Positions 26,485-52,447 of a DNA stretch of 64,000 nucleotides are shown here, piece after piece (the first letter of the stretch is position 1; each line of letters opens with the position of its first letter). Position numbers and translations under genes: made by a program. This DNA comes from Candidatus Omnitrophota bacterium (GTDB taxonomy: Bacteria > Omnitrophota > Gorgyraeia > Gygaellales > Profunditerraquicolaceae), in assembly GCA_028712255.1 (NCBI GenBank), contig JAQTQJ010000005.1, positions 20,950-84,949 on the forward strand, given 5' to 3'. The notes under the pieces are model-generated. The model saw nothing but the letters and a program-made list of their open reading frames with translations, searched no databases and was not told the DNA's origin.

Positions 26485-27783
26485 ATGTTGTTTAAGAACG
26501 TATTTTTGGGTATTTTTGTATTGTTTTCAGTCTTAGGTTGTTCAGGCCAAAAAACAGATTCAAAACCTGCCATTAGTATCTGGCATTGGATGACTGACCG
26601 CGATGCGGCTTTCCAGGAATTAGCAAAAAAATATGAAACTTTAACAGGCATAAGGGTAAATTTTGAACTTTATGCTCCTTCAGATGCTTATTCGCAGAAG
26701 ATCCGTGCCGCTGCCCAAGGTATAAACCTTCCGGATGTCTTTGGTATTTTAGGAGAAAAGAGGGATTTTGCCTCTTTCATTAAAGCCGGACATATCTTAG
26801 ATCTTACTTTTTATATGGATGCAAACAATAATATTTGGAAGAATAATTTCTTTCCCAAGGCTTTGGCGGTAAATGAATTTACCGCAGGTAACAGTTACGG
26901 AATAAATCCCGGCATATACGGCGCGCCCATAGATATTATGACCATTCAGATGGTCTATAATAAAAAACTTTTTTCACAATTAGGCCTGAATCCTAATCGG
27001 CCGCCGAAGACTCTGCAAGAGTTTTTGGATATTGGCCCTAAGATTCAGGCTGCCGGAATGCAGGGGTTGGTTTCCGGATGGGGAGAGGTTTGGATGATTG
27101 ATTGTTTGGCCAATGATTTCGCCTTTAATATTATGGGTAAAGATAAGGTATTGGCTACGATAAGAGGGGAAGTTTCTTACACTGACCCGGATTGGATCAA
27201 GGTATTTTCTATTTTTAAGCAGATGCAGGGCTCAGGTGTTTTGGCTAAGGGCTTGGTGACGATGATTAATAAATCTGCTGAGCAGCTTTTTGCCAATGAA
27301 AAAGCAGTGTTTGCTTTTAACGGTTCATGGTGTGTAAACGTTTACAAAGGAATGAATCCTAGCCTTGAGTACGGAGCAATGCTTCCGCCACAGGTATCCG
27401 ATAAGTATCCGGTTTCTATATGGGGAGGAGCAGGCTCTTCTTTTATGGTAAACGCCCGTTCTAAAAACAAAGAAGAAGCAGTTAAGTTTTTAATCTGGTT
27501 GACCGATCAGGAGCAACAGGCATATTTATCTAAAGTTACCAATAATCTGCCTGCTAACAAAAATTGTTTAGCTAAGATTCCCGAGGTTTTGGCCCAGTTT
27601 GCCCGCGGCATGGATTATGCCACTCATCCGAATATCTGGGGGGTTTCAGAGTTTTCTCTTGTGATTGAAGCTTTTGATCGAGGAATCCAATCGATTATTA
27701 TCGGTGAAAAAACTCCCGAACAGGTTGCCAGCGAAGTGCAGCAGATTAAGGAAAGGGAATTAGATAAGAGGAAGGCCCGTTAG
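26485..27783 (+). CDS. ABC transporter substrate-binding lipoprotein (carbohydrate-type SBP, family 1).
   Basis: Lipobox VLGCSG after a signal peptide. SBP_bac_1-like sequence. RBS aaggagat. Confidence 0.85.
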   Translation: MLFKNVFLGIFVLFSVLGCSGQKTDSKPAISIWHWMTDRDAAFQELAKKYETLTGIRVNFELYAPSDAYSQKIRAAAQGINLPDVFGILGEKRDFASFIKAGHILDLTFYMDANNNIWKNNFFPKALAVNEFTAGNSYGINPGIYGAPIDIMTIQMVYNKKLFSQLGLNPNRPPKTLQEFLDIGPKIQAAGMQGLVSGWGEVWMIDCLANDFAFNIMGKDKVLATIRGEVSYTDPDWIKVFSIFKQMQGSGVLAKGLVTMINKSAEQLFANEKAVFAFNGSWCVNVYKGMNPSLEYGAMLPPQVSDKYPVSIWGGAGSSFMVNARSKNKEEAVKFLIWLTDQEQQAYLSKVTNNLPANKNCLAKIPEVLAQFARGMDYATHPNIWGVSEFSLVIEAFDRGIQSIIIGEKTPEQVASEVQQIKERELDKRKAR

Positions 27784-27858
27784 TCATTGCGAGGAGCGAT
27801 AGCGACGAAGCAATCTAAACCGGGATTGCTTCGGGCACTTCGTGCCCTCGCAATGACA
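27783..27858 (+). repeat. Composite palindromic element, family II copy 1. Structure: GTCATTGCGAGG...CGAAGCAATC..GATTGCTTCG..CCTCGCAATGAC.
   Basis: Nested inverted repeats. Sits between the SBP stop and the permease gene. Confidence 0.8.
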
Positions 27859-27877
27859 CATAATAACGATTAACCAG

Positions 27878-28756
27878 ATGAAAATAAAAAATACACTAGA
27901 GAATTATATTTTTATCCTGCCGGCAGTAACTATATTCGCCATATTTTATGTTATTCCCTTTATTTGGGTTTTTCAGTTGGGCCTGTTTGAGTGGGATGGT
28001 ATCTCCTTTACCAAAACATTTGTAGGTTTACAGAATTTTAAAGAGATTTTTCTGCAGGATAAGAATTGGTGGCAGTCGATATGGAATGCCGGTTACATTA
28101 CTTTGATTGCTCTTACCTTTCAAAATATCCTGGCTTTTATGCTTGCCTGGGCATGCGACCGTGAAATCAGAATGAAAAATTTCTACCGGGTGATTTTTTT
28201 TATTCCTCCGGTTCTTTCGGAAGTAGTCGTGGGTATGGCTTGGCGTTTTATCATTAACGATATTGATGGAGCAAATGTAGTTAACCGTATACTTACACAG
28301 ATGGGTTTTCCGCATCTGGTACATAATTGGCTTTCAGATCCTAACACTGCGCTTACCACTGTTGCTTTAGTCCATTGCTGGAAGGGTTTTGGCTGGGGGT
28401 TCCTTATTTTCTTGGCGGGGCTACAAACCATACCGCGTGAACTTTACGAAGCCGCACGTGTTGATGGAGCCAGCGCCTGGCAATCATTTAAAAAAGTAAC
28501 TATTCCCCTAATGATTCCGGTGATGGTATTGGTTGCAATCCTGACGGTTTTGGGTACGATGCAGGTGTTTGTATTGATTGTGAGCCTTGTCGGAGGAGAA
28601 TTTGCCGGCCATACTTCGGTGCCGGTCTTAAGGATTTTGGCTTCTATGCGCGGCTCTTCACGTTTCGGCTATGCCTGCGCCCAGGGGATTACCTTTGGCA
28701 TGGTGTTAATTATGATATCTTTTATTCAGTATCGTTTTTCCAAGAAAGGGCAATAG
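27878..28756 (+). CDS. Sugar ABC transporter permease (MalF/UgpA-like).
   Basis: EAA loop EAARVDGASAWQSFKKVTIP. Six TM segments. Confidence 0.85.
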   Translation: MKIKNTLENYIFILPAVTIFAIFYVIPFIWVFQLGLFEWDGISFTKTFVGLQNFKEIFLQDKNWWQSIWNAGYITLIALTFQNILAFMLAWACDREIRMKNFYRVIFFIPPVLSEVVVGMAWRFIINDIDGANVVNRILTQMGFPHLVHNWLSDPNTALTTVALVHCWKGFGWGFLIFLAGLQTIPRELYEAARVDGASAWQSFKKVTIPLMIPVMVLVAILTVLGTMQVFVLIVSLVGGEFAGHTSVPVLRILASMRGSSRFGYACAQGITFGMVLIMISFIQYRFSKKGQ

Positions 28757-28891
28757 TAAATACTGTGAAAATCTAAAGTTTGTCATCCTGAACGTCAGCG
28801 AAGGATCTCGTTTTAAAATTCTTCGTCGCCCTGCCGTTGGAGGGGTTCCTCAGAATGACGGGATTATTAAGAAAGGCCAGTAAGATAAAAA

Positions 28892-29740
28892 TTGAAGAAT
28901 TCATTTTATTATAAGAGTAAAAAATTTGTTGTAAATACTCTGATTCATATTCTTCTAATCAGCGTAGCGGTAACTTGTTTGTACCCGCTGCTTTGGATGA
29001 TCGTTTCTAGCCTGAAGACTCAAGATATGATTTTTAAAGATATTTCTTTGATTCCTCATCAGTTTCATTTTGAAAACTATACTCAGGCTTGGAAAGAGGG
29101 GGGCTTTGGCGGGAACTTCTTTAATAGTATTGTTTATACAGTATCAGTAGTTTTTGGAATAGTGATTATTTCTTCCATGGCTGCGTATGCTTTCAGCCGC
29201 CTGCGTTTTGTGGGAAGCAAATTTCTGTTTATTATGTTTATGGCGGCAATGATGATTCCTATACCGGGAAGTTTTGTTGCTCTCTATGTTTTATTGAACA
29301 AATTGCATCTAAGAAATACCCCCATTGGTTATATTTTATGTATGATTAATGTGGGTTTATCTACGAGTATATTTCTACTTAAAACTTTTTTTGACAAGAT
29401 GCCCAAAGAGTTAGAAGATGCCGCTCGCATCGACGGCTGCTCAAAGATTGGAATCTGGTGGCATGTGGCTTTGCCGCTAGCAAAACCGGTTTTGGCGGTA
29501 GTTATTGTGTTTAATGCTCTGGCCGTATGGAATGAATATATTTTAGCCTTGATTATTTTTGATAACCGTAAATTTATGCCTCTTCAGGTGGCCTTACAAT
29601 CTTTCCAGGGAGAGTTTGTTACCAACTATCCGCTATTAATGGCAGGCCTAACCATTACTGCCCTACCTATAATTTTGGTATACCTATTTATGCAAAAATA
29701 TATTATTAAAGGTGTTACTCAAGGGGCGGTGGTAGGATGA
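28892..29740 (+). CDS. Sugar ABC transporter permease (MalG/UgpE-like).
   Basis: EDAARIDGCSKIGIWWHVALPLAKP EAA motif. TTG start per ORF track. Confidence 0.8.
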   Translation: MKNSFYYKSKKFVVNTLIHILLISVAVTCLYPLLWMIVSSLKTQDMIFKDISLIPHQFHFENYTQAWKEGGFGGNFFNSIVYTVSVVFGIVIISSMAAYAFSRLRFVGSKFLFIMFMAAMMIPIPGSFVALYVLLNKLHLRNTPIGYILCMINVGLSTSIFLLKTFFDKMPKELEDAARIDGCSKIGIWWHVALPLAKPVLAVVIVFNALAVWNEYILALIIFDNRKFMPLQVALQSFQGEFVTNYPLLMAGLTITALPIILVYLFMQKYIIKGVTQGAVVG

Positions 29741-29764
29741 GTTGTTTAAAATTTGAATTTAATG

Positions 29765-29899
29765 TGTCATTGCGAGCCCGTTATATTAGTCATTACGAGG
29801 AGCGAAGCGACGAAGCAATCTCTAAAAATGGGATTGCTTCGGGCACTTCGTGCCCTCGCAATGACGGAGTTGGTTTTATTCGGCTCCTCGCAATGACAA
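29765..29899 (+). repeat. Family II palindromic element, copy 2. Extended or double unit with four CATTGCGAG/CTCGCAATG half-sites.
   Basis: Same core as copy 1. Overlaps the 5' end of ORF 29737 and supplies the ATG at 29893. Confidence 0.8.
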
Positions 29900-32172
29900 T
29901 AGTTGTGTTTTCAATGTGCCAATGTGTAAATGTCTGGGCGCAAGAATCAATTCCTCAGGCGGCCAAACCTTCCTCAGGCGAACTTACTACTCAGGCCTGG
30001 ATTGCGCATGGTAAAAAAGATATCGAAGCTACAAAAAAATATACTCAAACCTGTATAGATTTATATAAGGAAGAGGCAGATAAGGAGCAGGCTTCATTAA
30101 CTGCGTTGCCCAAAAATAAAAAAGAGATTGAGGCAGTGCAAGTTTTAAATGACGTAACTACCTGTTATTTTATCCAGGCAGAGAGCCTGATGCGCCAGGA
30201 AAAACTTGATGAGGCTAAGAAAATATTCAAGTTAATTATCGATAAATATTCTTACGGCCAGGGCTGGGATCCACGCGGATGGTTCTGGTCAATTAGGCTC
30301 GCTGCCGAACAAAGCATCAAAAAAATCGAAACCGGCTCTATCGAAATAGAGCAGAAAAAAAAGGTCAGCCAGCTTCCGACGAAATTGGTTTTGTTTAGTC
30401 CGGGCAAAGAAGAATTTGTCGATTATGTAAAATACGGTGAGTTTCAAAATATCGGCGAAAAAGATTATAAGTATGTTGTTACCGATCAGCAGGGCTTAAT
30501 CGATGCGGTAGGGGAAGGTGTTTATCCTAATAATAGCGCAGTCAGGAAGGATCCGATCTTTAAGCAGGTTATTAAAGATAAGCGTTTAGAAGGTGATGTT
30601 TGGGATTTTATCTATTCTCCTGATTTAGAGGCAGCATTTGTCAAATGGACGACCTCCAATGAGCCTGTGGGGGTTAGGTTATTTGGCACCGGCTTGATTT
30701 TAGAAAAAGCAGGATTAATTACTCAGGCGATCAAATGTTATTATTCGATAGTCGTGCATTTTCCTGCTAGCTATGGTTGGACTTATTGGCATACTCCTTG
30801 GTATGTTGGGCCTGCATCTTTAGCTAAAATAAATTTTCTTCTCAAACGTAATCCGCAGCTAGGTTATAAATTAGAAGGCGCCCAGATTGATATTGTTAAT
30901 GGTTTTGATAATGATATCTCCAATGATGTTGCCATAACTAATCCTGGGAAATTCGTGAAAGTTGACATGATCCAGGAGGCAGCCAAAGTAAAACCTACAG
31001 CTGAATCTGTGGGGATCAAACAGGAAGTTGGCACAGGTAAGGTGCGTTTAGTGCAATATAAAAATGATGACTGGCAGCTTTTGGTTGATGATAAGCCCTA
31101 TATTATCAAAGGAATTACTTATGCCCCTACCAAGGTTGGGCAGTCTCCGGATGACGGGACTCTCCAGAATTGGATGGAGGAAGACTTAAATAAAAACGGT
31201 AAAACCGATGGCCCTTATGATGCCTTTGTAGATAAAAATAGAAATAACAGCGATGATACTGATGAGCCAGCTGTCGGTGATTTTAAATTGATGCAGGATA
31301 TGGGGGTTAATACTATCAGGCTTTACCACCATCCTTTAAAGATTAATAAAGAGTTAATGCGCGATATGTATAATACTTATGGTATGCGCGTAATTATGGG
31401 TGATTTTTTAGGTAAATACGCCATTGGTAGCGGCGCTGCCTGGAATCCTGGAACCGACTATAATAACGAAGAACATAAAAAGAAAATGGTTGAGTCAGTT
31501 AAGGCGATGGTCAATGAATTTAAAGATGAACCCTATATTCTATTCTGGCTCTTGGGTAATGAAAATGTTTATGGTTATGCTTGTAATGCCAATGAATATC
31601 CGGAAGTTTATTTTAAATTTGCCAATGAAGTGGCTAAGATAATTAAGTCAATTGATCCGAATCATCCGGTAGCTATATGCAGTGGAGACATCCTATTTTT
31701 AGATAAATTTGGTAAGAATACCCCAGACATAGATATTTTTGGGACCAATGCTTACCGCGGGGATTATGGTTTTGGCGCTTTCTGGAGACAGGTTAAGGAG
31801 CAGTCGGGTAAACCAGCTTTTATTACGGAGTTTGGCTGTCCTGCATATGCTGAGGGAAAGAGTGTTGATGAGGCTGAGGAGTTTCAGGCGCAATACCACT
31901 TGGGTTCCTGGGAAGACATCCAGAATAATATGGCATTTGCAGGAGGGCAGGGTAATGCATTAGGTGGAGTGGTTTTTGAATGGCTGGATGAATGGTGGAA
32001 GGCGTATGAACCGGCGATTCATGATACAAAAGGTCTATGGGCTGGGCCATTTCCCGATGGATATATGCATGAAGAATGGCTGGGCGTGGCTGGCCAGGGG
32101 GATGGTTCACAGAGCCCATTTTTAAGGCAGTTGCGAAAAGTATATTATATGTATCAGAAGAAATGGAAATAA
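29893..32172 (+). CDS. Secreted clan GH-A (TIM-barrel) glycoside hydrolase. The start is reassigned to ATG 29893 because the longer ORF N-terminus runs through a palindromic repeat.
   Basis: Signal peptide MTIVVFSMCQCVNVWAQE. NTIRLY, LLGNENVY (acid/base NE) and FITEFG (nucleophile TE) motifs. FEWLDEWWK shared with the paralog at 33555. Confidence 0.7.
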   Translation: MTIVVFSMCQCVNVWAQESIPQAAKPSSGELTTQAWIAHGKKDIEATKKYTQTCIDLYKEEADKEQASLTALPKNKKEIEAVQVLNDVTTCYFIQAESLMRQEKLDEAKKIFKLIIDKYSYGQGWDPRGWFWSIRLAAEQSIKKIETGSIEIEQKKKVSQLPTKLVLFSPGKEEFVDYVKYGEFQNIGEKDYKYVVTDQQGLIDAVGEGVYPNNSAVRKDPIFKQVIKDKRLEGDVWDFIYSPDLEAAFVKWTTSNEPVGVRLFGTGLILEKAGLITQAIKCYYSIVVHFPASYGWTYWHTPWYVGPASLAKINFLLKRNPQLGYKLEGAQIDIVNGFDNDISNDVAITNPGKFVKVDMIQEAAKVKPTAESVGIKQEVGTGKVRLVQYKNDDWQLLVDDKPYIIKGITYAPTKVGQSPDDGTLQNWMEEDLNKNGKTDGPYDAFVDKNRNNSDDTDEPAVGDFKLMQDMGVNTIRLYHHPLKINKELMRDMYNTYGMRVIMGDFLGKYAIGSGAAWNPGTDYNNEEHKKKMVESVKAMVNEFKDEPYILFWLLGNENVYGYACNANEYPEVYFKFANEVAKIIKSIDPNHPVAICSGDILFLDKFGKNTPDIDIFGTNAYRGDYGFGAFWRQVKEQSGKPAFITEFGCPAYAEGKSVDEAEEFQAQYHLGSWEDIQNNMAFAGGQGNALGGVVFEWLDEWWKAYEPAIHDTKGLWAGPFPDGYMHEEWLGVAGQGDGSQSPFLRQLRKVYYMYQKKWK

Positions 32173-32188
32173 ATAATAGAAGACAAGG

Positions 32189-32263
32189 GTGTCATTGCGA
32201 GGAGCCGAAGGCGACGAAGCAATCCAAATCGAGATTGCTTCGCCCTGCGGGCTCGCAATGACG
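32189..32263 (+). repeat. Family II palindromic element, copy 3.
   Basis: gtgtcattgcgaggagccgaaggcgacgaagcaatcc...gattgcttcgccctgcgggctcgcaatgac. Confidence 0.8.
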
Positions 32264-32280
32264 AAATGATGGAGGTGGGT

Positions 32281-33432
32281 ATGAGGAAGTTGTTAGTGGT
32301 GTTATTGGCTTTATTTCTTTTAGCTCCGGTAATGGCCGCAGCTGAAGAAAAAGCCGCAATGTCCCCTAAGGAATTTGTGGTTTTCTTGGATAAGAATGGC
32401 AAGGATAATCATTATATTCCTAGCGGTTGGATGGGTGATTATGGCGATATTAAAATGAATGACCAGGCAGCGGATAATCCGCATAGCGGCACAAGCAGCA
32501 TTCAGTTTATTTATAGCGCTAAGAAATCACAGAATCAAGGTTGGGCTGGAGTTTACTGGCAGAATCCCTCGAACAATTGGGGAAATAAAAAAGGCGGTTT
32601 TGATCTAACCGGCATGACTAAACTTACTTTCTGGGCGCGCGGCGCAAAGGGAGGAGAGATAATTCAAAAGGTAATGGTCGGCGGGATCAAAGGTACATAT
32701 CCTGATACCGTGATGGTTGAGGATGGCCCTATTGAATTGACCAATGAATGGAAACAGTTTACGGTTAACTTAGTAGGCAAAGACCTTTCTTATGTTAACG
32801 GAGCTTTTGGTTGGACGACGACTGCGGATTTAAATCCGGAGGGCGCCACATTCTATATCGATGACATAAAGTTTGAGTCTGATGCAACTTTAAAACCTGA
32901 AGGTAAAAAGCAGCAGGCGATGCCATTTTATATTTATGCCGATCGATCAAGCGCAGCCAATCATTTTATTCCTAGTGGCTGGATGGGTGATTACGGCGAC
33001 ATAAAATATGATGGAGCCTCAAAAGAGGATGCGTATTTAGGGGATACTTGCGTTAAAATAATCTATAGTGGTAAGGCTACCCAAGGGGCGCGCTGGGCAG
33101 GAATTTTCTGGCAGAATCCGGCGAACAACTGGGGCAGTGTGGATGCGGGTATTGATCTTTCCAAAGCAACCAAGCTTACTTTCTGGGCGCGCGGCGCAAA
33201 AGGCGGTGAGCGCATCGAAGAGTTTAAGGTTGGCGGCATTATGGGAGAGTTTTCAGATTCAGATAGCGCAACCATCGGGCCAGTTCTCTTGAACAAAGAG
33301 TGGACTCAATACACTATTGATTTGAAAGGCAAAGATATGTCATATATTATCGGAGGTTTTGCCTGGTCAGCCAATGTGGATAATAACCCGGAAGGCGCAA
33401 CATTCTATCTGGATGAGATTAAGTTTGAATAA
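32281..33432 (+). CDS. Secreted protein made of two tandem carbohydrate-binding-module-like repeats of about 190 aa.
   Basis: Signal peptide MRKLLVVLLALFLLAPVMAAA. The block HFIPSGWMGDYGDIK...FWARGAKGGE...PEGATFY(I/L)D(D/E)IKFE occurs twice. Confidence 0.5.
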   Translation: MRKLLVVLLALFLLAPVMAAAEEKAAMSPKEFVVFLDKNGKDNHYIPSGWMGDYGDIKMNDQAADNPHSGTSSIQFIYSAKKSQNQGWAGVYWQNPSNNWGNKKGGFDLTGMTKLTFWARGAKGGEIIQKVMVGGIKGTYPDTVMVEDGPIELTNEWKQFTVNLVGKDLSYVNGAFGWTTTADLNPEGATFYIDDIKFESDATLKPEGKKQQAMPFYIYADRSSAANHFIPSGWMGDYGDIKYDGASKEDAYLGDTCVKIIYSGKATQGARWAGIFWQNPANNWGSVDAGIDLSKATKLTFWARGAKGGERIEEFKVGGIMGEFSDSDSATIGPVLLNKEWTQYTIDLKGKDMSYIIGGFAWSANVDNNPEGATFYLDEIKFE

Positions 33433-33455
33433 AATAACATTTTGAGTTTAGTTCT

Positions 33456-33535
33456 GTGTCATTGCGAAGAGCCAAGCGACGAAGCAATCTTTTATTAGAT
33501 TGCTTCGTCCGCCTTCGGCGGACTCGCAATGACAC
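33456..33535 (+). repeat. Family II palindromic element, copy 4.
   Basis: gtgtcattgcgaagagccaagcgacgaagcaatc...gattgcttcgtccgccttcggcggactcgcaatgacac. Confidence 0.8.
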
Positions 33536-33554
33536 AAGCATATTTAAAAAATCA

Positions 33555-34787
33555 GTGAAAAAATATTATTTTCTCGTCTTTGCGCTAATTTTTACGGTTA
33601 TCACCAGTATTTCCTGCGCCCCTTCTCCCAAGGTTTTTATTAAACAACTCAAAAACCAGCATTATCAACTTATCGTTAACGGTCGCCCGTATGTTGTCAA
33701 AGGGGTTTGTTATAACCCAATCCCGATAGGCCAGAATCATGAATATGATTGGTGGAGTGATCCGAATAAGCCCTGGATTGTTGACGGGAAACTTATGAAG
33801 GATATGGGGGTTAATACTATTCGTCTTTATCAAGCGCATGATAATCCTGAGGAGGTAAAACAAGTAATTCGAGACCTGTATAATTTGTATGGAATCCGTA
33901 CTCTTTTAGGTGATTGGTTGGGCTTCTGGGAGTATCCCTGCCCTTTTTATGGTGACAAAAAATTTCAGGATAAGGTAAAGGCCCAGGTATTGGAGATGGT
34001 TAATCTCTATAAAGATGAACCCGGAATTTTAGGCTGGATTTTGGGAAATGAGAATAATTATTCCTGCCTTGGACATGTAAATCCCTGGTCAAGCCCAGAG
34101 GTTGATCAAGAACCTGATCCACAGAAACAAAAATTGATGCGTGCAAAAATTTATTATTCTTTTGTAAATGATTTATCTAAGGAAATACATAAGGTTGACC
34201 TAAAGCATCCTGTAGGATTGGGTAATGGCGAATTAGTAGGTTTAGATTCTGCCAATAAATTTTGTCAGGATGTTGATTTTGTAGCCTGTATAATTTACCG
34301 TGGTAAAACCTTCGGCAACCTTTTTAATTCCCTCAAAGCAACATTTGATAAGCCGATGCTGTTAGCAGAATTTGGCGCGGATTGTTATGATGCTTATCTT
34401 AAGAAGGAAGATCAAAATATGCAGGCGTTTTTCTTGCAATCACAGTGGGAGCAGATTTACAAAAACTTAGCCAATAAAAAAGAAGGCGTAGGTAATTGTA
34501 TAGGCGGAACAATTTTTGAATGGGTGGATGAATGGTGGAAATATGCTTCTGATAATCCGCAAGGATGGAAAGTTCATAATACCGAGAGCGGTTGGTCTAA
34601 TGGAAGCTATTATTTTGATATCCGCGCACAAAATAATATGAATATGAATGAAGAATGGTTTGGTATTGTTGCATTAGGAGAGCAGTTGGAAAACGGTTTA
34701 AATAAGCGCATACCGCGTAAGGCTTATTATGTAATTAGGGAGTTTTGGAAGAATCCGGTAGTTAAAAAAACGCGTAAGAAGAAATAA
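33555..34787 (+). CDS. Clan GH-A glycoside hydrolase paralog. Start tentatively GTG 33555, because the ORF 5' part lies in a repeat element.
   Basis: NTIRLYQ, ILGNENNY, LLAEFGADCY, FEWVDEWWKY. Lipoprotein-like N-terminus ...ITSISCAP. Confidence 0.6.
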   Translation: MKKYYFLVFALIFTVITSISCAPSPKVFIKQLKNQHYQLIVNGRPYVVKGVCYNPIPIGQNHEYDWWSDPNKPWIVDGKLMKDMGVNTIRLYQAHDNPEEVKQVIRDLYNLYGIRTLLGDWLGFWEYPCPFYGDKKFQDKVKAQVLEMVNLYKDEPGILGWILGNENNYSCLGHVNPWSSPEVDQEPDPQKQKLMRAKIYYSFVNDLSKEIHKVDLKHPVGLGNGELVGLDSANKFCQDVDFVACIIYRGKTFGNLFNSLKATFDKPMLLAEFGADCYDAYLKKEDQNMQAFFLQSQWEQIYKNLANKKEGVGNCIGGTIFEWVDEWWKYASDNPQGWKVHNTESGWSNGSYYFDIRAQNNMNMNEEWFGIVALGEQLENGLNKRIPRKAYYVIREFWKNPVVKKTRKKK

Positions 34788-34791
34788 AACA

Positions 34792-34838
34792 AAGGGGACG
34801 GTTCTCTTAAAAAAGAGAACCGTCCCCTTTATTTTTAA
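34792..34838 (+). terminator. Terminator / REP-like hairpin aggggacggttctc-ttaaaaaa-gagaaccgtcccct + TTATTTTT.
   Basis: 14-bp perfect stem followed by a T-tract. Confidence 0.7.
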
Positions 34839-34850
34839 GACGGAGGCCGT

Positions 34851-36416: not shown

Positions 36417-36436
36417 CCTGGATTCCGCTGAAAACT

Positions 36437-36495
36437 AGGGACCGTTTCTATTTTTTTTAAAAAAAATAGAAACGGTCCCTTTCCTTTTTTTGTTT
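36437..36495 (+). terminator. Terminator / REP-like hairpin gggaccgtttcta...tagaaacggtccc + TTTCCTTTTTTT. An inverted half-site tagaaccgccccc lies at 36510-36523.
   Basis: 13-bp stem with an AT loop, followed by a T-tract. Confidence 0.65.
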
Positions 36496-36636
36496 TAAAA
36501 ACAAACAAAAAATAGAACCGCCCCCTTAGATTTAAACATTCACTTTTCTTGAAATCGCTTGACTTAAGAGTTTTTTAGTAGTACAGTAAAATTAATATTT
36601 TATTTAACTTTTTAGAAAGCTAAGTAATTTTATATT

Positions 36637-37869: not shown

Positions 37870-37923
37870 GCCGCAAGGCGGATGGTTTGGCTTCTACTAG
37901 CCAAAGCTATAACAGGGGGGATT

Positions 37924-39078: not shown

Positions 39079-39093
39079 TTTGTCTTTATACAA

Positions 39094-40119
39094 ATGACTC
39101 GTACCAAAAAAGTTCCTTCCAAAAATGTTTCTATCGTAGATGTTGCTCGTTCCAGCGGAGTATCCATAACTACCGTTTCCCGGGTTATCAATAAAATCGG
39201 AACCGTTAAAGAAGCTAATCGCATAAAAGTGATGAATGCGGTCCGTGAATTAAAATTCCAGCCGTCTATTTTCGCGCAACGCCTGGCAACTGGCAGGAGC
39301 AATGTTGTGGCCTTGGTTATTCCCCGTTATGAAGGAGTATTCTATTCTTTTTATGCCTTGGAGCTTATCCGTGGGGTAGGCACAATGTGTGAAGCTTTAA
39401 AATTAGATTTACTTTTACATTTAACTGATTCACGCACTCCGCTAGCTTTACGCGGGGTAGGCGGAATAATTTTTTCTGATATTATCGGTAATCGCGCTCA
39501 GTTAGAAGAGGCTCTAGCCAAGGGTATTCCTAGCGTTGTGATTAATTATTATGTGGATGATCTGAATGTTTCTTGTATTGCCATTGATAATGCTGGAGGG
39601 GCAGAGAGCGCGGTTAATTATTTGATTGAACTGGGACATAAAAAGATAGCGCATATTACCGGAGATATAATGACTCAGGCAGCGGCAAAACGCTTGGAGG
39701 GTTATAAGCGTGCGCTAGAAAAAAATAATATTAAGGTGCGGGAAGATTATATATTTCAAACTGATTATTCCCGCGGAGCAGCAAGAGGCGCGGCTGAGAA
39801 GTTGATTAAAGCGGCCGACCCGGCAACTGCTGTATTTGTCGCCTCTGATGCTATGGCGCTGGAGGTAATGGCAGTAGCTCGCGAATTAGGAAAAAAGATT
39901 CCGGATGATTTATCGATTGTCGGTTTTGATGATAATCCTTCCGGGCTCTATGGCCCGGTTGGGCTTACTACTGTTCGCCAGCCCTTAATCCGCATGGCTG
40001 AAGAAAGCGTTAAAGAATTAAACCGTCTGATTGCTGTAAATAAAAATTCTCCAAAAAAAATTCTGCTTCCTGCAGAATTAGTTATTCGAGAGTCCTGCAA
40101 ATCTCTTGTCGGCAGATAA
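39094..40119 (+). CDS. LacI family transcriptional regulator.
   Basis: HTH VSIVDVARSSGVSITTVSRVIN plus a periplasmic-binding-like core. Confidence 0.8.
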   Translation: MTRTKKVPSKNVSIVDVARSSGVSITTVSRVINKIGTVKEANRIKVMNAVRELKFQPSIFAQRLATGRSNVVALVIPRYEGVFYSFYALELIRGVGTMCEALKLDLLLHLTDSRTPLALRGVGGIIFSDIIGNRAQLEEALAKGIPSVVINYYVDDLNVSCIAIDNAGGAESAVNYLIELGHKKIAHITGDIMTQAAAKRLEGYKRALEKNNIKVREDYIFQTDYSRGAARGAAEKLIKAADPATAVFVASDAMALEVMAVARELGKKIPDDLSIVGFDDNPSGLYGPVGLTTVRQPLIRMAEESVKELNRLIAVNKNSPKKILLPAELVIRESCKSLVGR

Positions 40120-40183
40120 ACTTTTTCTACAATCAGTAGTATATTATGATAAATGGTTATACCATATATTGTAAAATTTTTTG

Positions 40184-40212
40184 TTGACAATAGATATCAC
40201 TTTTGTTATATT
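40184..40212 (+). promoter_or_regulatory. Sigma70-like promoter for nrdJ: TTGACA-17 nt-TATATT.
   Basis: TTGACA at 40184-40189, TATATT at 40207-40212, 47 nt before the ATG. Confidence 0.5.
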
Positions 40213-40258
40213 GCTTAAGTAATTTATCACTAATCTTCCTAATTATTCGAGGTGAAAA

Positions 40259-42583
40259 ATGGATTTAAAATTATCCCCCAATGCCGTCAAGGTTCTTGAG
40301 CGCAGGTATTTACGCAAGGACCAGGGGGGCTCGCTCATCGAGACCCCGGAGCAGTTGTTCGTTCGTGTAGCAGGCGCTATTGCTATTGCGGACAAACTTT
40401 ACGGGGCAGGAGAGCAGGAGCTAAAGCTTCTTACGGATTCATTTTTTAAGATGATGGTTAATTTAGAATTTTTGCCGAATTCTCCCTGTTTAATGAACGC
40501 GGGAAAAGAATTAGGGCAACTCTCAGCTTGTTTTACCCTTCCCATTGAAGATTCAATGGAGTCGATTTTTGAGACCTTGAAGGTCACTAGCCTTATTCAT
40601 AAATCCGGCGGCGGCACAGGTTTTAATTTTTCTCGCCTGCGCCCTAAAAATGCCGTAGTTAAAACTACAGGTGGCGTAGCAAGCGGGCCGATTTCATTTA
40701 TGCGTGTATATGATGCGGCAACTGAGGCGGTCAAACAAGGGGGAACCCGACGCGGGGCAAATATGGGGATCTTGCGCGTCGACCATCCGGATATTATGGA
40801 GTTTATTACTTGCAAGGAGAATAATAATCATATTACTAACTTTAATATTTCCGTTGCCATTACTGATGAGTTTATGCGTAGGCTTGCTCGCGGCGAAGAT
40901 TATGATTTGATTGATCCGCACACGCATAAGCCGGTGCAGAAAATCAATAGTAAGGATGTATTTAATCTAATCGTAAAACAGGCGCACAAAAATGGCGAGC
41001 CCGGAATTATTTTCATTGACCGTATTAATCAATATAATCCTACTCCAAAATTAGGGGAAATTGAAAGTACTAATCCTTGTGGCGAACAACCGCTTTTGCC
41101 TTATGAAAGTTGCGATTTGGGTTCGATAAATTTAGACCAGATGTTTAAGAAGGTTGGTACGCGTTGTGAAATTAATTGGGACAGGTTAAAAGAGGTTACA
41201 TCTTTAGCCGTACATTTTCTGGATAATTTAATTGATGTAAATAAATTTCCTCTTCCGGAAATTGAGCAGGCTACCAAGGCTACCCGTAAAATCGGCTTAG
41301 GGGTTATGGGTTGGGCGAGTTTATTGATTCGCCTGAATATTCCTTATAATAGCGAAGAGGCTGTGAATTTGGCTGAAAAAGTAATGTCATTTATTTTAGA
41401 TGAAGCAAATAAAAAATCCTTGGAGTTAGGGAAAAAGAAGGGTGTATTTCCTGCTTTTAAAGAAAGTATTTATGATAGAAAAGACGGTTCGACCAGAATG
41501 CGCAATGCTACGCTGACTACCATTGCTCCTACCGGAACCATTAGTATCATTGGCGGGCCATGTTCATCGGGAATCGAGCCTTTGTTTGCGTTATCATATT
41601 ATCGCAAAGTTATGGATAATGATAAATTAGTGGAAGTAGAGCCACTATTTGAACAGGTTGCCCATCAGAGGGGATTCTATAGTTTGAAGCTTATGGAGAA
41701 GGTTGCTGAGAGCGCGTCCATAAAAGATATTAAAGAGATTCCTGAAGATGTGCGCAGAGTTTTTGTAACTAGCCATGATATTGCTCCGGAGTGGCATGTG
41801 CGTATGCAGGCAGCTTTTCAGAAATATGTGCATAATGCCACAAGCAAAACAATTAATTTTCCGCATGAAGCAACTATTGAGGAAGTACGAAAATCTTATA
41901 TTATGGCATTTGATTTAGGCTGTAAAGGCATAACTATTTATCGTGACAGGAGCCGTGAAGAGCAGGTATTAAATGTTGGTAAGCCTAAAGAGAAGCAAGA
42001 AGAACAGGCAAAACACCTTGGCCTATCGGAAGGCCAAGTGTTCGCTCGTGCGAAAGAGATTGCCCCCCGTCCGCGTCCGGAAGTAATTATCGGTACGACT
42101 ACTAAGGTTTCGACCGGTTGTGGCAATCTTTACGTAACTATAAATATCGATGAAGACGGTAAACCGTTTGAGTTATTTACCCAGATGGGTAAAGCCGGAG
42201 GCTGCGCAGCCAGCCAGCTGGAAGCAACCGGACGCCTAGTTTCTTTGGCATTTCGCGCCAACATTGAAGTAAAATCTATTATTGAGCAATTGCGTAATAT
42301 TCGCTGTCCATCTCCTTCCTGGGAAAAAGGGCAGAGAATATTTTCTTGCGCTGATGCTATTGCCCGGGTTATCGAGCGGCGCCTTATAAATACGCAGCCA
42401 GCTGTTATTGTATCATCAGAATCGGTGACTATTCCTATGAAGCATTCACATGATGACCAGCTACAGTCATCGGATTTAGATGAGCAGGTAAATATCGTCG
42501 GCATGTGTCCTGATTGTGGAGGTGCTTTGCGTCACGAGGAAGGCTGTGTTAAGTGCCACGGCTGCGGTTATTCTAAGTGCTAA
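40259..42583 (+). CDS. nrdJ: Class II adenosylcobalamin-dependent ribonucleotide reductase.
   Basis: NPCGEQPL active-site region. C-terminal Cys cluster CPDCGG...CVKCHGCGYSKC. Overall RNR class II architecture. Confidence 0.9.
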   Translation: MDLKLSPNAVKVLERRYLRKDQGGSLIETPEQLFVRVAGAIAIADKLYGAGEQELKLLTDSFFKMMVNLEFLPNSPCLMNAGKELGQLSACFTLPIEDSMESIFETLKVTSLIHKSGGGTGFNFSRLRPKNAVVKTTGGVASGPISFMRVYDAATEAVKQGGTRRGANMGILRVDHPDIMEFITCKENNNHITNFNISVAITDEFMRRLARGEDYDLIDPHTHKPVQKINSKDVFNLIVKQAHKNGEPGIIFIDRINQYNPTPKLGEIESTNPCGEQPLLPYESCDLGSINLDQMFKKVGTRCEINWDRLKEVTSLAVHFLDNLIDVNKFPLPEIEQATKATRKIGLGVMGWASLLIRLNIPYNSEEAVNLAEKVMSFILDEANKKSLELGKKKGVFPAFKESIYDRKDGSTRMRNATLTTIAPTGTISIIGGPCSSGIEPLFALSYYRKVMDNDKLVEVEPLFEQVAHQRGFYSLKLMEKVAESASIKDIKEIPEDVRRVFVTSHDIAPEWHVRMQAAFQKYVHNATSKTINFPHEATIEEVRKSYIMAFDLGCKGITIYRDRSREEQVLNVGKPKEKQEEQAKHLGLSEGQVFARAKEIAPRPRPEVIIGTTTKVSTGCGNLYVTINIDEDGKPFELFTQMGKAGGCAASQLEATGRLVSLAFRANIEVKSIIEQLRNIRCPSPSWEKGQRIFSCADAIARVIERRLINTQPAVIVSSESVTIPMKHSHDDQLQSSDLDEQVNIVGMCPDCGGALRHEEGCVKCHGCGYSKC

Positions 42584-42663
42584 AATCTAGGGGACGGTTC
42601 TATTTTTCTGCCGTCTAGTTGAGTAGGAAAATAGAATTGCCCCCCTTGTTTTTCAATATCCCC

Positions 42664-44577
42664 ATGAAAAATTTTGATGTAATCGTTATCGGTGCCGGCC
42701 ATGCCGGTATTGAAGCAAGCCTGGCGTGCGCCCGTATGGGCGCTAGAACCCTTATGCTTACTCTGGATATTAATTCTATCGGAAGGATGAGTTGCAATCC
42801 GGCTATCGGTGGAGTAGGTAAGGGCCAGTTGGTAAAAGAGATTGATGCTTTAGGCGGACAAATAGGTATTGCTACCGATGCCTGCGCAATTCAATTTCGT
42901 ATTCTTAATTCTTCCAAAGGCCAAGCTGTTCAGTCATCGCGGGCCCAGATTGATATGCACAGATATAGCCGTTATATGCGTGGAATAGTTTTACATCAGA
43001 AGAATTTAACGGTAAAAGAAGCGCAGGTAAGAAAATTAATTGTAGAAGATGGCAGAGTTTTGGGGGTAATTACGGATAATGAAAAGATTCGTTCTAAAAG
43101 TGTAGTTATATGCCCGGGAACATTCCTAGATGGTGTAATTCATATAGGATTAAAACATTTTAGTGCCGGGCGTATCAATGAGCGTGCTTCTATAGGCCTG
43201 GCGGATAATTTAAAAAGCCTAGGTTTTAACCTATTACGTTTTAAAACCGGAACCTGCCCGCGCCTGGATAAGCGTACAATTGAATTCTCTAATCTGATAA
43301 TCCAAGAAGGTGATTTAATCCCTAAGCCTTTTTCATTCTCAACCAAACAAATAAAACAAAAACAAGTTCCTTGCCACATCACTTATACCAATAAGAGTAC
43401 TCATGAGATAATTCGCGCTAACCTTGATCGCTCGCCGCTTTATGCAGGGATAATTAAAGCTACAGGCGTTAGGTATTGCCCTTCAATTGAAGACAAGATT
43501 GTTAAATTTGCAGGCAAAGAACGCCACCAGGTATTTCTGGAACCTGAAGGTTTAGGGGTTAATGAAATTTATCCTAATGGCATATCTACCAGTTTGCCTG
43601 AAGATGCGCAGCTTAAACTTTTGCATTCTATTTCGGGCTTAGAGAAAACAAAGGTTATCCGTTTTGGTTATGGTATTGAACATACCGTAGTTGACCCCAC
43701 GCAGCTTTTCCCAACTCTGGAGACAAAGCTAATTAAAAATCTTTATTTGGCTGGCCAAATTAACGGCACAACCGGTTATGAAGAAGCAGCCGCGCAGGGA
43801 TTGGTTGCCGGAATTAATGCGGCTTTACGTTTAAAAAATAAGGAACCTCTAATTTTGGACCGCGCAAGCAGTTATATCGGCGTATTAATTGATGATTTAA
43901 CTACTAGGGGGACTCTTGAGCCATACCGGATGTTTACCTCAAGAGTAGAATATCGTCTGGTTATCCGTGAAGATAATGCGGATTTGCGCCTGGGAAAAGT
44001 AGGTTTTGAGTTGGGGTTGGTGAAAAAAAATGTTTATCGTAAAATAAAAAAGAAAGCGGATGGCATTAAAGAAGGGATGGAATTTTTAAGAAAAACGCGG
44101 ATTAATTGTCCTGTTGGCCATTCTGAGCCCGCCGCTTTAGGCGGCGAGGCGAAGAATCTAAGATTGGTAACCCTAGAAAAATTATTGAAGCGGCCGCAAA
44201 TAACGATCAAAGATTTAAAGAAGATGCATAAATTAAAAACAGGTATACCCGAATCTGCTTGGCAACAGATTCAAATCGAGGTAAAATATGCTGGATTTAT
44301 CCAGAGGCAACTTAAAGATGTAGAACGGTTTGAGCATCTAGAAAAAATTAAATTGCCGCAAGATTTTGATTATAGCAGTTTGTCTGGAATATCCCTGGAG
44401 ATAAGAGAAAAACTGGCTAAATTTAAACCGCTTAACTTGGGGCAGGCGTCGCGTATTTCAGGAGTAACCCCGGCAGCCGTATCTCTTTTGATGGTTTATT
44501 TGCGAAAATGTAACAGCTTTCGGAATTCAGCGACGAGTGTCATTGCGAGCGACCGAAGGGAGCGAAGCAATCTTTAA
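42664..44577 (+). CDS. mnmG: tRNA uridine 5-carboxymethylaminomethyl modification enzyme MnmG (GidA). The last roughly 20 codons read into a repeat element.
   Basis: MKNFDVIVIGAGHAGIEA FAD motif. GidA-family sequence throughout. Confidence 0.9.
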   Translation: MKNFDVIVIGAGHAGIEASLACARMGARTLMLTLDINSIGRMSCNPAIGGVGKGQLVKEIDALGGQIGIATDACAIQFRILNSSKGQAVQSSRAQIDMHRYSRYMRGIVLHQKNLTVKEAQVRKLIVEDGRVLGVITDNEKIRSKSVVICPGTFLDGVIHIGLKHFSAGRINERASIGLADNLKSLGFNLLRFKTGTCPRLDKRTIEFSNLIIQEGDLIPKPFSFSTKQIKQKQVPCHITYTNKSTHEIIRANLDRSPLYAGIIKATGVRYCPSIEDKIVKFAGKERHQVFLEPEGLGVNEIYPNGISTSLPEDAQLKLLHSISGLEKTKVIRFGYGIEHTVVDPTQLFPTLETKLIKNLYLAGQINGTTGYEEAAAQGLVAGINAALRLKNKEPLILDRASSYIGVLIDDLTTRGTLEPYRMFTSRVEYRLVIREDNADLRLGKVGFELGLVKKNVYRKIKKKADGIKEGMEFLRKTRINCPVGHSEPAALGGEAKNLRLVTLEKLLKRPQITIKDLKKMHKLKTGIPESAWQQIQIEVKYAGFIQRQLKDVERFEHLEKIKLPQDFDYSSLSGISLEIREKLAKFKPLNLGQASRISGVTPAAVSLLMVYLRKCNSFRNSATSVIASDRRERSNL

Positions 44578-44613
44578 AGATTGCTTCGTCGCTGTCGCTC
44601 CTCGCAATGACAC
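44537..44613 (+). repeat. Family II palindromic element, copy 5, at the mnmG 3' end.
   Basis: gtgtcattgcgagcgaccgaagggagcgaagcaatc...gattgcttcgtcgctgtcgctcctcgcaatgacac. Confidence 0.8.
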
Positions 44614-44651
44614 GATTAATTTCGAAATTTTGATTGTTATAAGAAAAGGCA

Positions 44652-45326
44652 ATGGATAAAGAAAAAAATTATATAGAGCTAGAGAAATTTTGTCTCGATG
44701 AAGGCATAGACCTTTTTGGAGTTGCTGATATAAGTAAGGTAAGGGAGGAATTTAAGCTTTCTCCTAAAATATCCCAGAATTTACAGAGCGCTATTTGTTT
44801 GGGAGTTATGCTTTCTGGAGCAGTATTATCTGAAATAGATATCGTGCCTACTAAATTATATTTTCATCATTACAAAATAGTCAATTCTTTTTTGGATCAT
44901 ATAGCATTAAGATTATGTAATATAATTCAGAAAAAGGGTTTTTTGGCTTTGGCTGTTCCTGCGACACAAATTATCGATTGGGAAAAAAATGTTGGGCATC
45001 TCTCGCATAGAAAATTAGGTGTTTTAGCAGGTTTAGGTTGGATCGGCAGGAATAATCTTCTGGTGAATGAAAAATTAGGCAGCCAATTCCGTATAGTTTC
45101 GGTATTGACCAATATTCCGCTAAAAATAGATGAATCAAACAAAAAAGACTGCGGTGAGTGTAGGCGTTGTGTTGAGGTATGCCCGTCAGGAGCGATTCAG
45201 GATAATCCTGCTGATTTTGATCATGTTAAATGCTTTGAAAAACTCAAAAGTTTTCAAAAACAGCGTCAAGCTGAACAGTTTGTCTGCGGAATATGTGTGA
45301 ATGTTTGTAAAGGCAAGAGAAATTAA
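44652..45326 (+). CDS. Short QueG-like (epoxyqueuosine reductase-related) 4Fe-4S protein.
   Basis: LGVLAGLGWIGRNNLL and CGECRRCVEVCPSGAI motifs. Only 224 aa, compared with about 380 for canonical QueG. Confidence 0.5.
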   Translation: MDKEKNYIELEKFCLDEGIDLFGVADISKVREEFKLSPKISQNLQSAICLGVMLSGAVLSEIDIVPTKLYFHHYKIVNSFLDHIALRLCNIIQKKGFLALAVPATQIIDWEKNVGHLSHRKLGVLAGLGWIGRNNLLVNEKLGSQFRIVSVLTNIPLKIDESNKKDCGECRRCVEVCPSGAIQDNPADFDHVKCFEKLKSFQKQRQAEQFVCGICVNVCKGKRN

Positions 45327-45359
45327 CAGTAACAGCTTAGTTCTCGGAAGTATCCGTCG

Positions 45360-45439
45360 GTGTCATTGCGAGTCCGCCGAAGGCGGACGAAGCAATCTAA
45401 TAAAAGATTGCTTCGTCGCTATCGCTCCTCGCAATGACA
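45360..45439 (+). repeat. Family II palindromic element, copy 6. A degenerate short relative gtcattcccgctttcgcgggaataac lies at 52398-52426.
   Basis: gtgtcattgcgagtccgccgaaggcggacgaagcaatc...gattgcttcgtcgctatcgctcctcgcaatgacac. Confidence 0.8.
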
Positions 45440-45475
45440 CAGATAATTCCAAGGGCTGAGCTGAACAATTAAAAA

Positions 45476-52386: not shown

Positions 52387-52447
52387 AGATTTAACTATGT
52401 CATTCCCGCTTTCGCGGGAATAACAATGGGAAAACAGGAGGTACTTA

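Follow-up and report, generated by a model that had tools for sequence, protein, structure and literature searches.

The window analysed here, a stretch of 64,000 nucleotides from a Candidatus Omnitrophota bacterium (contig JAQTQJ010000005.1; G+C content of the window 39%), contains six full copies of a palindromic element, about 75-136 bp in size, which are located in the gaps between genes and are referred to below as the ATTGC family, after the sequence of their stem (Table 1). The genes that flank the elements are all on the + strand and code for a sugar ATP-binding cassette (ABC) transporter, glycosidase-like and tetratricopeptide repeat (TPR) proteins, ROK and LacI proteins, a ribonucleotide reductase and MnmG, together with a QueG-like Fer4 protein and a two-component system. 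The family fills five successive gaps of a single sugar-ABC/glycosidase operon, as well as both gaps around the Fer4 gene, whose product has homologues of 71-91% identity named Candidatus Omnitrophota.

Repeat elements of the window

The elements are distinguished by their arms. The 13-nt outer arm GTGTCATTGCGAG occurs 13 times in the window when up to two mismatches are allowed, compared to 0.67 expected occurrences (none of 100 shuffled sequences contained as many), and the 10-nt inner arm CGAAGCAATC has 12 exact occurrences, all of them as inverted pairs within the outer arms. With arm counts so far above those of shuffles, the six palindromic copies of the original prediction are borne out at the coordinates named there; a further, diverged copy at positions 28782-28860 had been overlooked. 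All copies are indeed found in gene gaps, as had been described (intercistronic or 3' of genes), but two of them touch coding sequence. The first three bases of the element at 27781, TAG, form the stop codon of the gene for the solute-binding protein (SBP), and the MnmG open reading frame (ORF) enters the element at 44537 for 13 codons and ends in its loop, with an added tail ...SVIASDRRERSNL before the stop.

Contrary to the earlier description, the copies do not share one orientation. The two halves of an element differ: a GAG-CGNAG-CGA module is present in one, and a GC mini-hairpin in the other. An oriented hidden Markov model (HMM) places the elements at 27782, 29788, 32189 and 33456 on the + strand and those at 44538 and 45361 on the - strand, with scores of 70-82 bits in the correct orientation versus 32-44 bits in the wrong one. 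Identical blocks (100%) of 34-61 nt are common to the window copies, and positions 33475-33535 are the exact reverse complement of 45360-45420. The flanks of the two flipped copies have just ~20 nt of weak similarity in common.

Table 1. Positions of the repeat elements in the window, with their surroundings and the sequence features or evidence recorded for each (SBP, solute-binding protein; GH, glycoside hydrolase; P388, 388-aa protein).
Feature	Positions	Strand	Location	Sequence features or evidence
Element 1	27781..27859	+	SBP / permease-1 gap	arms, fold, oriented HMM
Element 1, left monomer				(TA)GTC-ATTGC-GAG-GAGCGATAGCGA-CGAA-GCAAT-C; loop between monomers TAAACCGG
Element 1, right monomer				mini-hairpin GGCAC-TTC-GTGCC
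Diverged sister-family dimer	28782..28860	-	permease-1 / permease-2 gap	nhmmer E=0.0011
Composite element	29764..29899	+	permease-2 / GH gap	arms, fold, oriented HMM
Element	32189..32264	+	GH / P388 gap	left module GAGCCGAAGGCGA; right mini-hairpin CCC-TGC-GGG
Element	33456..33535	+	P388 / GH5 gap	arms, fold, oriented HMM
Element	44537..44613	- (flipped)	MnmG / Fer4 gap	arms, fold, oriented HMM
Element	45360..45440	- (flipped)	Fer4 / response-regulator gap	arms, fold, oriented HMM
Sister-family single monomer	52398..52426	+	intergenic	TGTC-ATTCCCGC-TTTC-GCGGGAAT-A; DNA fold -9.7 kcal/mol, z -5.2

RNA structure prediction, a check suggested along with the original prediction, showed that all six copies fold far better than shuffles: the predicted RNA folds range from -43 to -70 kcal/mol (z -7 to -11 compared to dinucleotide shuffles) and the predicted DNA folds from -28 to -31 kcal/mol. 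GC-rich hairpins downstream of genes could in principle represent Rho-independent terminators or attenuators. A T-tract, however, follows none of the six elements, and none of them was called by a terminator scan, whereas the same scan called the palindromes of a second family of the window, the GGGGACGGTTC family; the calls cover 34791-34830 and 36437-36480, and these palindromes (about 34786-34835 and 36437-36480) have A and T runs on either side and score as intrinsic terminators in both directions. The ATTGC elements are moreover located within operons that are translationally coupled in relatives, and we accord the terminator explanation practically no weight. The earlier view of a BIME-like, interspersed family of intergenic palindromes, separate from the GGGGACGGTTC family, is supported. 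No Rfam family was found at the gathering threshold in the whole window, and a search of the 27.6-33.7 kb region at E values up to 10 gave two irrelevant weak matches and nothing else. A full-text literature search with the arm sequences and their translated peptides yielded nothing relevant.

The copy at 29764-29899 is a composite, in which an orphan left arm at 29764-29776 precedes a complete element (29787-29867), followed in turn by an additional right arm (29879-29899), and similarly stuttered arms are found in two of the other loci examined (L088 and L259; L numbers denote fetched loci). More generally, outer arms are at times tandemly repeated with spacers of 2-10 nt, as in CTCGCAATGACAC-TA-CTCGCAATGACAC of L259 (12583-12609) or in the four consecutive left arms of L088 (2729-2790); the window examples are the arms at 29764-29776 and 29879-29899. 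This suggests repeated insertion or excision at the ends of the element, or slippage.

Two further features of the window belong to sister families. The dimer at 28782-28860 is a heterodimer of ATTCT/AGAAT and ATCCT/AGGAT stems, with the halves CGTC-ATTCT-GAGG...CGAAG-AGAAT and ATCCT...AGGAT-GAC, in which stem complementarity is kept inside each half and lost between the halves. Its predicted fold is no better than that of shuffles (the region folded, 28788-28864, left out the 6 terminal nt of the outer arm on the right), and the copy may therefore be decayed. The same type of heterodimer occurs in L051, L065 and L344, and the ATTCT family is found in at least 120 viral contigs. The sequence at 52398-52426, which had been regarded as a degenerate relative, is not a decayed copy; it is a sister-family monomer of the Neisseria dRS3/NTS type, which is equivalent to the CGTC-1 type discussed below. 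Its CGTC-1 identity derives from the peptide VIPAKAGI, which corresponds to GTCATTCCCGCGAAAGCGGGAATC, and from the definition of the NTS. The C that trails the palindrome in the NTS is missing from it.

The hairpin monomer and its distribution

Each element consists of an inverted pair of hairpin monomers, whose tags face outward and whose tails face inward, separated by an AT-rich spacer of 6-11 nt. The monomer starts with an unpaired YGTC tag, which leads into a 5-bp stem (ATTGC/GCAAT); the stem encloses a GA-rich internal loop that bears a variable mini-hairpin, and a C comes right after the stem. In the six elements, each of the 12 monomers has the sequence GTC-ATTGC...GCAAT-C, which fits a hairpin with GTC before it and C after it. 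In a wider set of 166 elements the termini are YGTC...GACR, with position -1 occupied by C in 99 and by T in 55 elements, and position +1 by G in 96 and by A in 57.

The modules between the stem arms range in length from 5 to 45 nt. Among 458 half-units, the distance from outer to inner arm peaks at 5 nt (CGNAG) and 11 nt (GAG-CGNAG-CGA). A hairpin of at least 3 bp is present in 56% of the 227 unique modules of 9-30 nt, compared to 22 +/- 2.6% in shuffles; the module hairpins comprise 75 distinct stem strings, and their loops are mainly GAA, GCA, GTA or GGA, i.e., GNA. For a monomer with such a hairpin module, the predicted DNA fold is exactly the tag-stem-module structure. A UUCG-tetraloop signature was also considered and dropped, as TTC/GAA triloops occur symmetrically on both strands.

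The stems covary within each half. A non-canonical outer 5-mer is present in 24 halves, 15 of which have an exactly complementary inner 5-mer (ATCGC:GCGAT, ACTGC:GCAGT, ATGGC:GCCAT, ACCGC:GCGGT). Complementary variation is also seen in the outer:inner pairs ATTCT:AGAAT and ATCCT:AGGAT. In 32 elements both within-half pairings are kept and both cross-half pairings are broken, whereas the reverse was observed in one (an ascertained set); in an unascertained by-catch set the same comparison gave 10 versus 0. Within-half covariation, with cross-half pairing lost, identifies the monomer hairpin as the conserved unit. The arms of the nested outer and inner inverted repeat described originally are present, but that repeat is not the structure under evolutionary constraint; what looks like a nested palindrome of 75-135 bp represents two such units in inverted arrangement.

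The ATTGC family is broadly distributed. An exact-pattern scan, with one genome per species, matched at least 120 genome contigs, and those listed come from no fewer than 18 lineages of phylum level: Alpha-, Gamma- and Deltaproteobacteria, Campylobacterota, Chloroflexota, Bacteroidota, Ignavibacteriota, Patescibacteria, Cyanobacteria, Planctomycetota, Omnitrophota, Armatimonadota, Spirochaetota, Gemmatimonadota, Latescibacterota, Bacillota, Binatia and others. Cultured isolates that carry it include Bradyrhizobium, Pedobacter, Chryseobacterium, Nostoc and Helicobacter. The pattern is also matched by at least 120 IMG/VR contigs, many from one tailed-phage group, and by 11 plasmids, with no annotation beneath the plasmid matches. 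A local duplication artefact, which absence elsewhere would have suggested, is ruled out by these occurrences.

The genes in the vicinity of the elements were clustered at 240 element-bearing loci (3688 ORFs, with a cut-off of 150 aa). No transposase emerged at these loci, and the sole recurrence consisted of tailed-phage structural genes in ~25 related viral contigs; the cut-off hid the 95-aa gene described in the next section. The ORFs between pairs of elements are ordinary genes, together with a single transposase-like ORF in L028 (Patescibacteria, 653-1726), which codes for a 321-aa protein with an N-terminal zinc ribbon and lies between two ATTGC elements, the facing ends of which read ...CTCGCAATGGG and CCCATTGCGAG... 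In this locus, an insertion sequence may have landed in or beside an element.

These data bear on the possibility that the elements are classical miniature inverted-repeat transposable elements (MITEs), i.e., deletion derivatives of an insertion sequence with a DDE transposase and with terminal inverted repeats. The elements are short, they have terminal inverted repeats and they exhibit insertion polymorphism (see below), and the transposase-like ORF of L028 lies between two of them. A target-site duplication of 2-9 nt, which had been proposed as a means of telling MITEs from REP/BIME elements, was however at or below chance in the 166 elements, and the family is therefore REP-like (REP, repetitive extragenic palindrome) rather than a classical MITE. 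Furthermore, no transposase family recurs near the elements in the 240 loci, the halves act as independent hairpin units, and the gene that does recur between the arms codes for a GIY-YIG nuclease, not a DDE transposase. The MITE explanation is already contradicted by this evidence and appears scarcely credible.

The history of the window copies was assessed by comparison with loci of 85 Omnitrophota relatives (~960 kb; 75-91% amino-acid identity), 80 of which came from a metagenome scan. These loci contain three full elements in total. No element is present at the SBP / permease-1 junction (the 27781 site) in any of 30 relatives, at the permease-2 / GH junction (29764) in any of 40, at the GH / P388 junction (32189) in any of 57, or at the P388 / GH5 junction (33456) in any of 13. 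In most of the closest relatives in the alignment, the SBP stop and the permease start overlap or abut. The MnmG / Fer4 gap (44537) is empty in L241 and L244 and contains a copy in the opposite orientation in L243, whereas the Fer4 / response-regulator gap (45360) is empty in L243 and L244 and contains, in L241, a CGTC-1/NTS-type dimer of the ATTCCCGC sister family. Two of the six sites have thus been occupied independently in single relatives. The scarcity of elements in relatives, the empty sites and the 100% identical blocks of the window copies indicate, at the level of sequence comparison, a recent lineage-specific expansion of the family in the source genome. Six sites that are filled here, and free of elements in most or all of the relatives sampled, provide unusually clean natural evidence of recent gain.

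At another position, the GH5 / TPR junction, a GGGGACGGTTC palindrome is found in the window, an ATTGC element in L259 and L243, and nothing in L244 and L310.

The placement of the elements might be taken to reflect a role primarily at the RNA level, namely as intercistronic stem-loops that stabilize or process operon mRNA and that have no dedicated DNA enzyme. The predicted RNA folds are very stable, all full-length copies of the window lie between co-directional genes, and the SBP and permease genes have one exactly between them. The wider sample has 68 elements between unidirectional genes, compared to 17 between convergent and 15 between divergent genes (17 others fall inside crude ORF calls), and the median distance to the upstream stop codon is 23.5 nt. 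Nevertheless, the orientation of the elements relative to transcription is random (17:19, p=0.87), which argues against a strand-specific RNA role, and the elements have no Rfam match. The identical arms across at least 18 phyla and the covariation within halves are unlike the outcome of selection on a generic RNA hairpin, and relatives without elements are found for all six sites. In addition, SsnA, the nuclease with which the family is compared below, does not bind its repeat in RNA form (PMC11893778). A primarily RNA-level explanation is accordingly unlikely; such a role is likely to be true as a side effect, and not as the family's reason for existing.

Candidate partner enzymes

The window encodes one Y1/HUH transposase (22481-22975; 164 aa; Y1_Tnp, PF01797, E 8e-18), and an association with such an enzyme had been among the checks proposed for the palindromes. 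The elements could in that case be REPIN-type elements mobilized by a Y1/HUH transposase, possibly the one in the window, and they do share with REPINs the arrangement of inverted doublets of tagged hairpins. The Y1 gene is, however, bracketed by repeats of the other family: 25-nt inverted repeats at 22398-22422 and 22974-22998 contain GGAACGGTTCC and GGGGACAGTTCC, respectively, and these flanks (GTTCCAACGGAACGGTTCC / GGGGACAGTTCC) resemble the GGGGACGGTTC family and fit the flank consensus of TIRYT transposases, GGGG[AT][CG]A[CG] (PMC6006769). The nearest ATTGC element is 4.8 kb away from the gene. A Y1 orthologue (60% identity) is syntenic in L310 and paralogues are present in L252, L257 and L260, and all four of these loci are without ATTGC elements. 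A tblastn search with published RAYT and TIRYT sequences gave a match in the window only (22481-22975), with no Y1 gene in 245 other loci tested. Moreover, the tag of the elements is CGTC or TGTC, not GTAG, and CGTC-tagged REPs have been reported without a Y1 association (PMC3733652). Being flanked by GGGGACGGTTC-family repeats and present in relatives without ATTGC elements, the Y1 lead belongs to the other family, of which, on sequence grounds, the transposase is probably the partner enzyme. For the ATTGC elements, the Y1/REPIN explanation is largely refuted and must be considered very improbable.

A second type of enzyme is suggested by the repeats that resemble the monomer most closely. 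SsnA, a GIY-YIG protein of ~100 aa whose gene occurs in an NTS-ssnA-NTS architecture, binds and cuts the NTS (a ATTCCCGC repeat that contains dRS3) as single-stranded DNA (ssDNA) only (Chenal et al. 2025, Nat Commun 16:2388, PMC11893778). Cleavage is controlled by the three bases that precede the palindrome, and binding by the C that follows it (PMC11893778).

A scan of all fetched loci for the GIY-YIG motif revealed two ORFs of ~95 aa, one in L035 (Planctomycetota) and one in L100, whose products (95-96 aa) contain PF01541 (E 6e-18 and 3e-15, respectively) as their only domain. In both loci, the gene is located exactly between a left monomer, GTCATTGCGAG-module-CGAAGCAATC, which ends a few nt upstream of the ATG, and a right monomer, GATTGCTTCG-CTWCG-CTCGCAATGAC. 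The same bracketing by monomers is found in six more independent contexts (Desulfobacteraceae, Tolypothrix, Dehalococcoidia, WOR-3, KSB1 and a metagenome group). Both monomers thus flank the gene in eight of eight independent contexts outside the window, some of which lie within arrays of elements.

These GIY-YIG proteins have at least 8000 homologues, with 67-81% identity across phyla. More distant homologues (45-49% identity) have other GTC-tagged hairpins on their flanks, and one such flank fits the published SRM motif; the proteins associated with the ATTGC family are 45% identical to the homologue with this motif-matching flank. In the L100 protein, the spacing of Y8/Y19/E66 is exactly that of Y6/Y17/E64 in SsnA (SsnA residues from PMC11893778).

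In L035 (~4900-5600, - strand), a direct duplication of ~105 nt lies on both sides of the gene-bearing element. The duplicated sequence resembles the 5' terminus of the gene downstream (N-terminus MNVSYNWLKELVEFDLTPEELAQKLTFLGLE), which we take to be PheT-like; the upstream copy is cut by a stop codon at the element. The insertion mechanism may have left this duplication as a footprint, or it may be an artefact of assembly. Many GIY-YIG homologues are located on very short contigs (0.4-2 kb), and several identical proteins are found on 7-20 contigs each; a gene-bearing unit that is itself repeated, and thereby breaks assemblies, would be expected to give both.

Known repeat systems and the proposed mode of spread

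Like the Ssn/NTS system, whose nucleases form the GIY-YIG family cd10448 of the CDD, the ATTGC family comprises a hairpin with (C/T)GTC before it and C after it, which occurs as inverted pairs around a ~95-aa single-domain GIY-YIG gene. Additional points of likeness are the gene-less copies dispersed in intergenic DNA, tens to hundreds per genome, the identical Y-Y-E spacing, and a patchy occurrence among close relatives. Unlike the NTS, which has a continuous 8-bp ATTCCCGC stem and a 4-nt loop, the window family has the 5-bp ATTGC/GCAAT stem, the GA-rich internal loop and the variable apical mini-hairpin, and its repeats are nearly always fused as tight dimers of 75-135 bp. An Omnitrophota host also appears to lie outside the range of the Chenal et al. 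study (PMC11893778).

The family also shares many features with the CGTC-tagged REP superfamily (CGTC-1 to -4), which includes Neisseria dRS3 and Rickettsia RPE-4 and RPE-6 (Di Nocera et al. 2013, PMC3733652). These repeats have a CGTC or TGTC (or CCTC) tag, a stem that starts with AT and a short tail; they occur mainly as inverted dimers near the 3' ends of genes, in 5 phyla, without a dedicated Y1 transposase (PMC3733652). The ATTGC family likewise has an unpaired CGTC/TGTC tag, an AT-starting stem, a short tail starting with C and a mainly inverted-dimer arrangement; it is found in unidirectional and convergent gaps near the upstream stop, occasionally intrudes in frame into ORFs, and has no Y1 transposase. 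The stems of the CGTC REPs, on the other hand, are continuous over 8-9 bp with loops of 4-5 nt, in contrast to the 5-bp stem and internal loop of the window family, and the 5 phyla reported for them compare with at least 18 for the ATTGC family.

The CGTC family consensus sequences were back-translated from the peptides that the survey lists (VIPAKAGI, VIAGLDPAI, VIPWLDHGI and RHSELVSGS). Within that list, the CGTC-1, -3 and -4 peptides and four CGTC-2 entries (two species) mismatch ATTGCGAG...CGAAGCAAT, and CGTC-1 proves to be of the ATTCCCGC type, the same as the 52398 copy of the window. The ATTGC family may nonetheless overlap with the survey's "Bradyrhizobium CGTC-1 with unusual loops".

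With the REPIN/RAYT systems and the REP/BIME elements of Escherichia coli, the family has in common inverted doublets of tagged hairpins that are non-autonomous and intergenic, and a single-copy enzyme gene bracketed by the same hairpins. The tag of those systems is GTAG and their enzyme a Y1 HUH transposase, as opposed to the YGTC tag of the window family. REPIN-RAYT systems are, as summarized in 10.1101/2022.05.22.493013, mostly vertically inherited and lineage-specific, whereas the ATTGC family keeps its sequence across phyla, as do its partner proteins at the identities given above. To judge from sequence, then, the ATTGC family is of a known kind, that of the CGTC-tagged REPs and Ssn-related repeats, yet lies outside their published definitions. 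The search motif published for SRMs, HGTCWYN(0-2)YYVSBRHN(0-5)WNVSBRGN(0-2)RNCYNB, matches the NTS and the sister-family dimer of L241, and a survey built on it would miss the ATTGC family, for the reason given below.

On balance, we think it likely that the elements of the window are gene-less dimers of a hairpin repeat with a GTC tag, that this repeat is partnered elsewhere by a GIY-YIG ssDNA nuclease of the Ssn type, and that the dimers spread by nicking. The window copies are most likely gene-less copies of a selfish or domesticated element, with the AT-rich spacer of 6-11 nt in the place that the gene would occupy. In the proposed scheme, each monomer would fold when the DNA becomes single-stranded, e.g., during lagging-strand replication, transformation or conjugation, and a cognate Ssn-type nuclease would bind the folded monomer and nick it immediately upstream of GTC; the gene for this nuclease would lie elsewhere in the genome or arrive with a phage or plasmid. 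In combination with repair or template switching, such nicks might then copy dimers into new intergenic sites. In the transcript, the full dimer would form a very stable stem-loop (-43 to -50 kcal/mol) with no U-tract.

The REP that follows malE is the classic example of differential expression within an operon. A dimer inserted between formerly overlapping genes would uncouple them, and could protect the upstream mRNA, as the REPs do in malE-malF. Intergenic placement, a stable predicted transcript hairpin and uncoupled genes together make effects on operon expression likely.

Several observations weigh against the nuclease-driven scheme. Neither the window (64 kb) nor the ~960 kb of syntenic DNA of relatives contains a GIY-YIG gene or a remnant of one. 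The published SRM motif matches no form of the ATTGC monomer and has no occurrence in the window on either strand. The insertion junctions are unclean, with extra non-repeat sequence accompanying the elements, and the insertion chemistry is therefore unreadable from them. Nearest-neighbour folding gives no stable hairpin for the short-form monomer, and since the hairpin of the full dimer is predicted to be far more stable than that of the monomer, the long hairpin may also matter. Finally, what has been demonstrated for the Ssn system is nuclease activity and an influence on transformation; we know of no experimental demonstration that Ssn-associated repeats are mobile.

A bolder proposal, which we advance as a tentative one and regard with some doubt, is that the hairpin pair and the 95-aa GIY-YIG gene form a mobile, horizontally spreading "nuclease-only" transposon of ~450 bp, with MITE-like gene-less derivatives, that moves via ssDNA across at least 18 phyla and rides on phages and plasmids. 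If this is true, it would define a class of bacterial mobile DNA run by a GIY-YIG ssDNA endonuclease instead of a transposase or recombinase, and would supply the long-missing mobilizing agent for CGTC REPs, Neisseria dRS3 and repeats of the Rickettsia RPE type. To our knowledge, the CGTC-type repeats (Neisseria dRS3, Rickettsia RPEs and alphaproteobacterial REPs) have been catalogued for more than 10 years without a known partner enzyme. One branch was tied to a site-specific ssDNA nuclease in 2025, and the ATTGC family represents a second, structurally different and much wider-spread branch with the same partnership.

The spread of these repeats is rendered experimentally approachable by the conservation across phyla and the contrast between filled and empty sites. 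It becomes directly testable whether Ssn-type nucleases spread repeats, and how an insertion affects operon expression, e.g., through the uncoupling of binding-protein and permease genes. The variable GNA-capped mini-hairpins, in turn, hint at a route by which nuclease specificity may diversify, which is relevant to the programmable ssDNA cutters that have been proposed.

Some additional features were noted among the genes of the window. The 388-aa protein encoded between two elements contains an internal tandem duplication (32415-32687 versus 32967-33239; period 552 nt, 73-88% identity), and the glycosidase-like genes on either side of it (31254-32000 versus 33758-34540) are paralogues, with 71-80% identity over conserved stretches. 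The ribonucleotide reductase of the window (40259-42583; 774 aa) is without an intein, whereas its orthologue in a 90% identical relative (L241, 4498-8049; 1183 aa) contains one that has a LAGLIDADG domain. A single + strand ORF of 7245 codons (59-21796), the product of which contains TPR and HEAT-like repeats, takes up the first third of the window.

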